The position numbers were made by a program, and so were the translations under genes. A stretch of 64,000 nucleotides of DNA from Escherichia coli 042 (GTDB lineage Bacteria; Pseudomonadota; Gammaproteobacteria; Enterobacterales; Enterobacteriaceae): assembly GCF_000027125.1 (NCBI RefSeq), contig NC_017626.1. One strand, 5' to 3'. Shown piece by piece: positions 55,514 to 56,620 of this stretch (within the stretch, counting starts at the first letter, position 1; each line of letters starts with the position of its first letter). Under the pieces are notes generated by a model that did no database searches, was not told the origin of the DNA, and saw only the letters and a program-made list of their open reading frames with translations.

Positions 55514-56620
55514 TTAGAACTGGTAAACCAGACCCAGAGCTACGATGTCATCAGTGTTGATGCCAGCGTCACGGGTGAAGCGGTTGTCGTCCAGCAGGTT
55601 GATTTTGTAGTCAACGTAGGTGGACATGTTTTTGTTGAAGTAGTAGGTCGCACCAACATCAACATATTTCAGGATATCTTCGTCGTCGTAGTTACGACCA
55701 TTGATGACACCCAGGTTTTTACCTTTAGACTGCAGGTAGGCTACAGACGGACGCAGACCGAAGTCGAACTGGTACTGAGCAACAGCTTCGAAGTTCTGTG
55801 CTTTGTTTGCCCAACCCAAGGAACCTACGCGAGTTGCGTTGTAGGTCTGGGTGTACTGAGCAGCCAGGTAGATGTTGTTAGCGTCGTATTTCAGACCACC
55901 AGTGTAGGTTTCAGCACGGTCGCCGTTACCGATGTAAGCAGCGGTGTTCTGAGCATCAGTACGTTTGGAGCTGGAAACTGCAGCACCGATACCGAAGCCT
56001 TCGTAATCATAAGTGATAGAACCGCCAACGCCGTCGCCGTTCTGACGCAGAGCATCACGACCGTTGTTGGTCATGCCCTCGCCGCTTACGCTACCGTTTT
56101 TGCCCTGGTACTGAACAGCAAAGTTCAGGCCGTCAACCAGACCGAAGAAGTCAGTGTTACGGTAGGTCGCGAAGCCGTTACCACGCTGCTGCATGAAGTT
56201 GTCAGAACCGTAAGTGTCGCCACCGAATTCTGGCAGTACGTCGGTCCAGGAAGTTACGTCGTAAACAACGCCGTAGTTACGACCGTAGTCGAAAGAACCA
56301 ACATCCTGGAATTTCAGACCTGCGAATGCCACACGGGTCCAGGAGTTTTCTTTGTTGTCTTCAGAGGTATTGCCCTGGATCTGATATTCCCACTGGCCGT
56401 AACCGGTCAGCTGGTCAGTAACCTGAGTTTCGCCTTTGAAACCAAGACGTACATAGGTCTGGTCGCCGTCTTCTGACTTGTTGTCAGAGAAATAGTGCAG
56501 GCCGTCTACTTTACCGTACAGATCTAATTTGTTGCCGTCTTTGTTGTAAACTTCAGCAGCGTTTGCTGCGCCTGCTACCAGCAGAGCTGGGACCAGGAGG
56601 GACAGTACTTTAACTTTCAT
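55514..56620 (-). CDS. ompC: outer membrane porin OmpC (non-K-12 allele)
   Basis: 368 aa; [46 protein letters not shown]...; conserved C-terminal ...ALGLVYQF; variation is confined to regions that look like surface loops. Confidence 0.93.

Follow-up and report, generated by a model that had tools for sequence, protein, structure and literature searches.

The ompC gene of Escherichia coli 042 lies in a 64,000-nucleotide stretch of contig NC_017626.1 (assembly GCF_000027125.1; hereafter the window), and its product differs in blocks from the OmpC of K-12. The locus raises the question of how such an allele arose and what its differences mean. OmpC is a general-diffusion osmoporin that forms trimers in the outer membrane, passes small hydrophilic solutes and is expressed under the control of EnvZ/OmpR. 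The preliminary description of this gene held that it is a divergent ompC allele with substitutions and indels clustered in putative surface loops, that the barrel core and the C-terminus are conserved, and that phage or immune selection may lie behind the differences. We conclude with high confidence that the window ompC is a recombinational mosaic of pre-existing loop cassettes, a mechanism absent from that description, and one part of it appears to be a short, recent import.

55514..56620, minus strand: ompC coding sequence (CDS), 368 codons plus stop, from ATG to TAA, for a 21-residue signal peptide and a 347-residue mature porin.

The three peptides quoted in the preliminary description are all present in the translation of the minus-strand open reading frame at 55514-56620. 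In a pairwise alignment of 372 columns with OmpC of BW25113, which served as the K-12 comparator, 25 columns differ (93.3% amino-acid identity). The changes comprise 16 substitutions, insertion of D88, loss of GFTS from loop 4 (L4; the other loops are named likewise) and gain of GVIN in L7, the last of which is absent from the quoted examples. On a loop map taken from an AlphaFold2 model, 21 of the 25 differing columns fall in surface loops (two in L1, five in L2, seven in L4, five in L7 and two in L8). The other four are conservative strand changes (V57M, A213G, V215I and V293L, window residue first), and none of the 25 columns maps to the signal peptide, L3, L5, L6 or the periplasmic turns. 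The enrichment in loops was significant by the Fisher test (p = 2.2e-9 over all columns, and p = 7.9e-5 when substitutions alone are counted). Divergence from K-12 by substitutions and indels, and its clustering in surface loops, were thus borne out; of the outcomes that the preliminary description had named as speaking against it, neither a location of the differences mainly in the strands nor identity to K-12 was found. Its statement on conservation holds in part. The barrel is mostly, and the final strand fully, conserved, apart from the four conservative strand changes; in the C-terminal region, R347Q and D358N sit in L8, within the last 22 residues. At the DNA level, ompC is 92.6% identical to K-12, versus 96.8-99.3% in the flanking genes and intergenic regions, which makes a sharp local divergence peak.

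The strand and loop boundaries were assigned by DSSP on the AlphaFold2 model of the window OmpC (PMC5221442 gives no residue boundaries for the OmpC loops). The model was built from an input of 69 porins with identity down to 32%, and had a predicted local distance difference test score (pLDDT) of 90.9 and a predicted template modeling score of 0.86. With a shallower input, 46 OmpC sequences of no less than 90% identity to the query, the pLDDT was 30.6, and that model was discarded. The predicted structure has 16 strands with a split N/C-terminal strand and eight external loops, with L3 folded into the pore. Comparison by Foldseek with 2j1n, 2xe1 and 9wcb gave target-normalised template modeling (TM) scores of 0.95-0.98 and root-mean-square deviations (rmsd) of 1.1-1.6 Å. 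K-12 OmpC (PDB 2J1N; WP_000865568.1) shares with the window OmpC the gene, the locus and the fold (TM score 0.96, target-normalised; rmsd 1.6 Å), and the two are identical in the signal peptide, L3, L5, L6, the periplasmic turns and the promoter/micF region. The Sec signal peptide with its A-N-A cleavage site, PEFGG in L3 and the C-terminal VYQF are likewise those of K-12. Unlike K-12 OmpC, the window OmpC carries the four strand residues given above and the residues of L1, L2, L4, L7 and L8 given in the following map.

56558..56620, minus strand: signal peptide, codons 1-21, identical to K-12; its protein sequence is invariant across the 15 alleles of the panel described below, and nt 1-69 are invariant.
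56456..56485, minus strand: L1, residues 46-55; S49 and E50 set it apart from K-12, N47 and E50 from the genome ECA64.
56345..56374, minus strand: L2, residues 83-92; five columns differ from K-12, including the one-residue insertion D88.
56186..56272, minus strand: L3, residues 117-145, the pore constriction, with PEFGG at 130-134; 0 of 29 columns differ from K-12.
56033..56104, minus strand: L4, residues 173-196; without the GFTS of K-12, with S177, V178 and M183.
55919..55963, minus strand: L5, residues 220-234; K-12 type, four residues away from the ECA64/O157 type (TDDQNSPLY).
L6, residues 261-272: identical to K-12.
55682..55717, minus strand: L7, residues 302-313; four-residue GVIN insertion and N310, as in O157-type OmpC.
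55547..55597, minus strand: L8, residues 342-358; R347 and D358, a type common to A21, ECE204 and the ECA64 lineage.

The origin of the loop differences was analyzed on a panel of the window allele and 14 other ompC alleles (15 in total, 89.9-98.6% identity). Each variable block of the window allele recurs in this panel in other combinations. The L1/L2 block is common to HS, ATCC 8739, O157 TR01, swine 19-5 and strain 361; the short L4 with D189 to TR01 and EC187792; the L5 type to K-12, TR01, HS, EC187792 and strain 361; the GVIN of L7 to O157, TR01, ATCC 8739 and others; and R347/D358 of L8, within the panel, to A21 and ECE204. Over the first ~100 codons the window allele shows no nucleotide difference from HS, TR01 and ATCC 8739. 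Over the last ~100 codons it shows none from A21, from which it differs at 57 nucleotides upstream of there. Since the blocks recur nucleotide-identical in otherwise different alleles, they are shuffled cassettes rather than substitutions accumulated within a lineage.

55819..55853, minus strand: inferred crossover interval, ompC nt 768-802 (maximum chi-squared 41.2, permutation p <= 0.0005).

This breakpoint separates a 5′ part like that of HS and TR01 from a 3′ part like that of A21, ECA64 and ST131 strains, and an incompatibility test of the pairwise homoplasy index (PHI) type on the panel gave p = 0.0005. At the breakpoint, the panel alleles all agree over a stretch of 33 nt (nt 769-801). 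Several invariant runs, 27-69 nt long, occur in the barrel-coding DNA, and such runs could serve as crossover sites. In this mosaic, the 5′ part with L1 and L2 is of the HS/ATCC 8739/O157 TR01 type, L4 and L7 are O157-like (without GFTS, with GVIN), L5 is K-12-like, and the 3′ part with L7 and L8 is of the A21/ECA64/ST131 type. The blocks were found at 99% identity or more in the following numbers of the 5,426 complete E. coli genomes.

5′ block: 917 genomes.
3′ block: 660 genomes, ST131 strains included.
Middle L4-L5 block: 35 genomes.
Whole allele: 31 genomes.

Polymorphism of the OmpC loops and its mosaic recombinational origin are a well-described phenomenon, and the present results match the published accounts. 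Hypervariable regions have been described in L1, L2, L4, L5 and L7, recombined into ~15 major groups (bioRxiv 10.1101/2021.09.21.461324), and more than 220 OmpC variants with modular L4, L5 and L7 are known (PMC5056734); the window L4 and L7 strings were sought in the supplements of the latter paper to assign loop classes, with no match. A published list of mosaic families of outer-membrane proteins also includes OmpC (bioRxiv 10.1101/2024.10.30.621157). As in the mosaic outer-membrane protein genes of E. coli (fhuA, lamB, ompA, ompC, ompF), few block types occur in many combinations on a conserved scaffold, and the tree of the gene does not follow the genome background. The window allele differs from these in nothing of kind; here one event is traced to a tract that measures at least 546 bp, and its recipient background and polarity are identified.

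The allele itself is already known, as its protein is in RefSeq and its DNA in 28 genomes. The protein is WP_000865595.1, the annotation in 1190, ST2747, O166:H15, VTB96933v and UID2309220033. Of 5,430 records, 31 contain the CDS at 99% identity or more, and in 28 complete E. coli genomes the DNA match is 100%; the carriers came from human, dog, chicken, lake water and seawater, and include ST2747 and O166:H15 strains. In five carriers the CDS is that of the window, and the identity stops 2 nt past the stop codon and, upstream, at -181. The carrier apbE is 4-8% divergent from that of the window (76-82 of 1,056 nt in 1190, ST2747, O166:H15 and VTB96933v; 43 in UID2309220033). The flanks of the identical-allele carriers are 1-8% divergent from the window, that is, the allele sits in unrelated backgrounds. 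Among the 5,426 complete E. coli genomes, neither the ompC CDS with both junctions (window 55440-56900; best 99.7%) nor the 24 kb of window 40000-64000 (best 99.6%) had an exact match, and the combination of this background with this allele is absent from them.

The nearest relatives of the strain at this locus carry a different ompC. With the 24-kb query around ompC, the best matches (99.5-99.6%) were ECA64, CB6837, A10, CH4796, 2021CK-01784 and LSC52, and none of these is among the 31 carriers of the window allele. Against ECA64, the window shows one difference in 47000-55936, one in 56827-64000 and two upstream of ompC, at 56801 and 56826. The remaining differences at the gene lie in one tract.

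55937..56482, minus strand: minimal recombination tract, ompC nt 139-684; 37 positions differ from ECA64 (34 substitutions and a 3-nt indel), with 15 amino-acid changes.

The DNA that flanks this tract is near-identical to the nearest relatives over ~9 kb in one direction and ~7 kb in the opposite one. The 37 differences amid ~16 kb of near-identity therefore point to a short recent import. All five relatives checked (ECA64, A10, CH4796, O17_K12a and 2021CK-01784) carry the 367-residue WP_000865560.1 together with the same ApbE, and because of this agreement the 367-residue allele is taken as ancestral and the window state as derived. The resident allele WP_000865560.1 is identical to the window allele from nt 685 to the stop; L7 and L8 are the same, and so is L4 except for D189G. 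It is unlike the window allele at 15 residues, all inside nt 139-684: N47 and E50 in L1, V57 in β3, five residues including the added D88 in L2, D189 in L4, A213 and V215 in β10, and four residues in L5 (AQNTAA for DQNSPL). The import left L7 and L8 unchanged. K-12 is a poor comparator for this gene: against the close relatives of the strain, the changed loops are L1, L2 and L5, not L4, L7 and L8. In the mechanism that we propose, homologous recombination with a donor of WP_000865595.1 type replaced at least nt 139-684 of the resident WP_000865560.1. The import spans at least 546 bp, and up to ~0.9 kb if it takes in the two upstream differences; the crossovers lie in conserved barrel-coding DNA, and L1, L2 and L5 are swapped. 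Such an import might date from a very recent event in which the strain escaped, or switched, a phage or contact-dependent inhibition (CDI) system that binds OmpC, a suggestion that we make tentatively and consider doubtful. If it is true, the strain and ECA64 would be a natural near-isogenic pair that separates readers of L1/L2/L5 from readers of L4/L7.

Short clusters of differences were also seen elsewhere among these near-identical genomes. The window and ECA64 differ at 53 clustered positions in ~40500-41500 and 44500-47000 (ccm/napA). In 44500-47000 the window shows no difference from A10, and at 40500-41500 both ECA64 and A10 differ from the window. A10 has difference clusters of its own in yojI-ada (51500-54300) and rcsD (57500-59400). 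From their distribution along the sequence, these clusters look like further short recombination tracts.

The functional meaning of the loops was considered on the basis of published work on OmpC-binding phages and toxins. GVIN in L7 is essential for adsorption of phage PP01 via gp38, K-12 OmpC is not a PP01 receptor, and GFTS is specific to K-12 (PMC12892980). In engineered OmpC, loss of GFTS from L4 and gain of GVIN in L7 switch PP01 adsorption, and on the chimera OmpC-K12(ΔGFTS + GVIN in L7) PP01 plates at wild-type efficiency; sequence specificity of L5 is less critical for this phage, and many single substitutions in L5 and L7 are tolerated (PMC12892980). The window allele is the natural counterpart of this chimera in three features, namely no GFTS, GVIN in L7 and a K-12-type L5. 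Because it shares these with a working chimera, the window allele is predicted to be a receptor for gp38 of PP01 type. Unlike the chimera, it also has non-K-12 L1, L2 and L8, S177/V178/M183 in L4 and N310 in L7. For gp37 of T4, O157 OmpC is reported as unused and a Phe in L4 as needed (PMC5221442). The sole Phe of K-12 L4 is in GFTS and is lost from the window allele, so T4 gp37 is predicted to use the allele poorly or not at all. Polymorphism of L4 and L5 decides recognition by CdiA-EC536 (PMC5056734). By the proposed mechanism, recognition by surface binders would be altered and solute diffusion would stay unchanged.

The closest solved structure is OmpC of O157:H7 EDL933 (PDB 9WCB, in complex with the gpJ central tail fibre of phage A8), which is also a receptor for PP01 gp38. 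The match scored 734.8 bits, with an rmsd of 1.1 Å for the model, and the short L4 and the GVIN-containing L7 are the same. The O157 protein has D47, V50, M57, a K-12-like SAE-NEN in L2, E189, TDDQNSPLY in L5, L293, Q347 and N358; against these residues, the window protein has N47, E50, V57, TSEDNKE, D189, a K-12-type L5, V293, R347 and D358.

Selection on the loops was analyzed through nonsynonymous (dN) and synonymous (dS) divergence. The dN was 0.093 in loops vs 0.009 in strands (~10-fold), and the panel mean was 0.091 in loops vs 0.005 in strands and turns. The dS was also raised, 0.32 in loops vs 0.09 in strands and turns (3.5-fold). The loop dN/dS was 0.29 for the window vs K-12; taken as the ratio of panel means it was 0.35, and it came near to or above 1 in tiny regions only (1.4 in L7 and 0.83 in L2). 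The raised loop dS fits imported segments that are old and diverged, rather than mutation of recent date. Of the selective origin suggested in the preliminary description, the relevance of the loops to surface binders finds support in the literature (PMC12892980, PMC5056734), and the selection itself is undemonstrated at a dN/dS of 0.29. That phage, contact-dependent inhibition or immune selection maintains the diversity is plausible and is the standard view in the literature; ompC was listed as positively selected by Chen 2006 and Petersen 2007, as these are cited in bioRxiv 10.1101/2021.09.21.461324.

It is worth noting that several points weigh against our interpretation. The sampled carriers match the window in the CDS but differ from it at -181/-182, which makes the upstream limit of the tract uncertain, and no exact donor was found. 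The single site at 56826 could be an independent single-nucleotide polymorphism. The 3′ block may have passed in either direction between the lineage of the window and that of the carriers, and either may have been the first to assemble the full chimera. The region-level dN/dS is below 1, so that no positive selection is shown, and recombination confounds dN/dS. The predictions for PP01 and T4 ignore the different L1 and L2 of the window allele and any shielding by O-antigen, and the statements on T4 with regard to the Phe and to O157 OmpC rest on unpublished data (PMC5221442).

There are other possible interpretations of these results. The mosaic may be real but neutral, that is, neutral variants may have been shuffled under relaxed constraint on the loops, with no receptor or antigenic phenotype that matters. 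The loop dN/dS below 1 in both comparisons and the tolerance of PP01 for many single substitutions in L5 and L7 (PMC12892980) would be in line with this. The literature, however, provides two arguments to the contrary: engineered versions of exactly these indels turn PP01 adsorption on and off, and natural L4/L5 variants decide susceptibility to CdiA-EC536. More indirectly, the sharp divergence peak and the limited number of recurrent block types resemble a balanced polymorphism. We therefore consider neutrality of the mosaic rather unlikely.

The loop differences may alternatively be point mutations and small indels that arose within the lineage under diversifying selection by phage or antibody, with no recombination. 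Such an origin would account for the concentration of differences in exposed loops and the ~10-fold excess of loop dN over strand dN, and older genome scans (Chen 2006 and Petersen 2007, as cited in the preprint named above) listed ompC as positively selected. It does not account for blocks that are nucleotide-identical in other alleles, nor for the significant breakpoints and PHI test; convergence of the shared blocks is implausible at synonymous sites. The loop dS is raised 3.5-fold as well, with a dN/dS of 0.29, and the identical CDS occurs in unrelated backgrounds. Moreover, 37 differences in 546 bp within ~16 kb of near-identity are incompatible with clock-like mutation. An origin by mutation within the lineage is thus very improbable, and the assembly of the allele from pre-existing cassettes by recombination is preferred.

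The allele might also be a resistance-associated porin of altered permeability, like OmpC20-33 or OmpK36 with L3 insertions. Clinical OmpC variants that alter drug passage are indeed known (from the titles of PDB entries 2xe1-2xe5 and 2xg6 and the introduction of bioRxiv 10.1101/2024.10.30.621157), and such permeability-altering porins have a change in L3 or in the charged pore, or a loss of expression. The window allele has none of these features: L3 shows no difference from K-12 in its 29 columns, the charged pore residues are unchanged, the strand changes are conservative and uncharged (V/M, A/G, V/I and V/L), the coding sequence contains neither a frameshift nor a premature stop, and the promoter is unaltered. 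The carriers, moreover, include water, chicken, dog and human commensal-type isolates. We give this explanation hardly any credence.

The result added by this analysis is that a short, recent, loop-swapping tract is resolved against the strain's own relatives, which makes a clean natural example of a known process. The type of ompC allele helps to predict the host range of PP01-like gp38, T4-like gp37 and lambda-like gpJ phages and the susceptibility to CdiA-EC536, and the host-range side is relevant to phage-therapy matching. Since the pore is K-12-like, no permeability or resistance phenotype is to be read into the allele. Beyond routine annotation, the importance of the finding is small.

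As part of the mosaic reading, which we hold with high confidence as a whole, the window ompC would be a functional, chromosomal gene for a 16-stranded β-barrel that is expected to form a trimer. The product matches the NCBIfam model NF007841 'porin OmpC' over its full length with 763.2 bits (cutoff 484), whereas the OmpF model (493.7 bits, cutoff 583) and the PhoE model (463.4 bits, cutoff 599) both score below cutoff; the match to Pfam PF00267 (Porin_1, the general bacterial porin family) is 472.8 bits. The top solved-structure matches, 9wcb (O157 EDL933) and 2j1n (K-12), are both OmpC chains. An assembly chimera, a mis-called open reading frame or a paralogue (ompN, ompF or phoE) taken for ompC has a negligible probability, for the CDS recurs at 100% identity in 28 complete genomes that are independent of one another, the synteny is canonical and the OmpC model alone is above cutoff among the three; megablast does give 2-4 porin-like places per genome. 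A pseudogene was likewise rejected, with the reading frame intact and the identical CDS in 28 genomes.

The gene order apbE / ompC / micF / rcsD is that of K-12 BW25113, with ompC divergent from micF.

54347-55402, minus strand: apbE, neighbour of ompC.
55476..55495, minus strand: hairpin of the ompC intrinsic terminator, AAAGGGCC-TGCG-GGCCCTTT and then a T-run, 19 nt past the stop codon.
56621..56953, no strand: divergent regulatory region of ompC and micF (ompC 5′ untranslated region, promoter and upstream control region).
56954..57047, plus strand: micF, gene of an antisense small RNA (Rfam RF00033, 116.8 bits vs a gathering score of 79), with its own terminator at 57019-57041.
57359-60031, plus strand: rcsD, neighbour of ompC/micF.

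The ompC-micF control region is 100% identical to K-12 across ~56620-57020 (~400 nt), and at all sites in -260..-1 that vary among the compared genomes the window has the K-12 state. A scan for consensus promoters upstream of ompC gave 3 matches vs 2.8 in shuffled sequence, and was not used for promoter placement. A small polymorphic hotspot among E. coli genomes was observed at -181 to -183 and -205/-206 from the ompC ATG (within window 56621-56880). The window has the commonest (K-12) haplotype there, and ECA64, A10 and the carriers each deviate from it. These sites are upstream of the ompC promoter, in a region that we take to be where OmpR boxes would be expected.

Next to ompC, the apbE of four of the five carriers (1190, ST2747, O166:H15 and VTB96933v; in strain 1190 at 13219-14274 of L016) is an outlier allele. 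The apbE of 1190 and ST2747 differs at 66-82 of 1,056 nt (6.3-7.8%), evenly spread, from those of K-12, HS, TR01, A21, ECE204, ECA64 and the window. O166:H15 and VTB96933v match 1190 bin for bin, and UID2309220033 shares the outlier apbE in part, consistent with its 43 differences from the window. The divergence begins 2 nt after the ompC stop, and its depth is unusual in a core gene of E. coli. On its sequence, this suggests an import from a divergent source beside ompC.

A further divergence peak from K-12 was seen at 60699-60897, between rcsB and rcsC, with ~90-93% identity in 200-nt windows vs ~99% around it. The rcsB-rcsC spacer of strain 1190 is different and shorter, and 117 of 199 columns differ. 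The peak has the look of a variable insert between the two genes, perhaps a repeat element.

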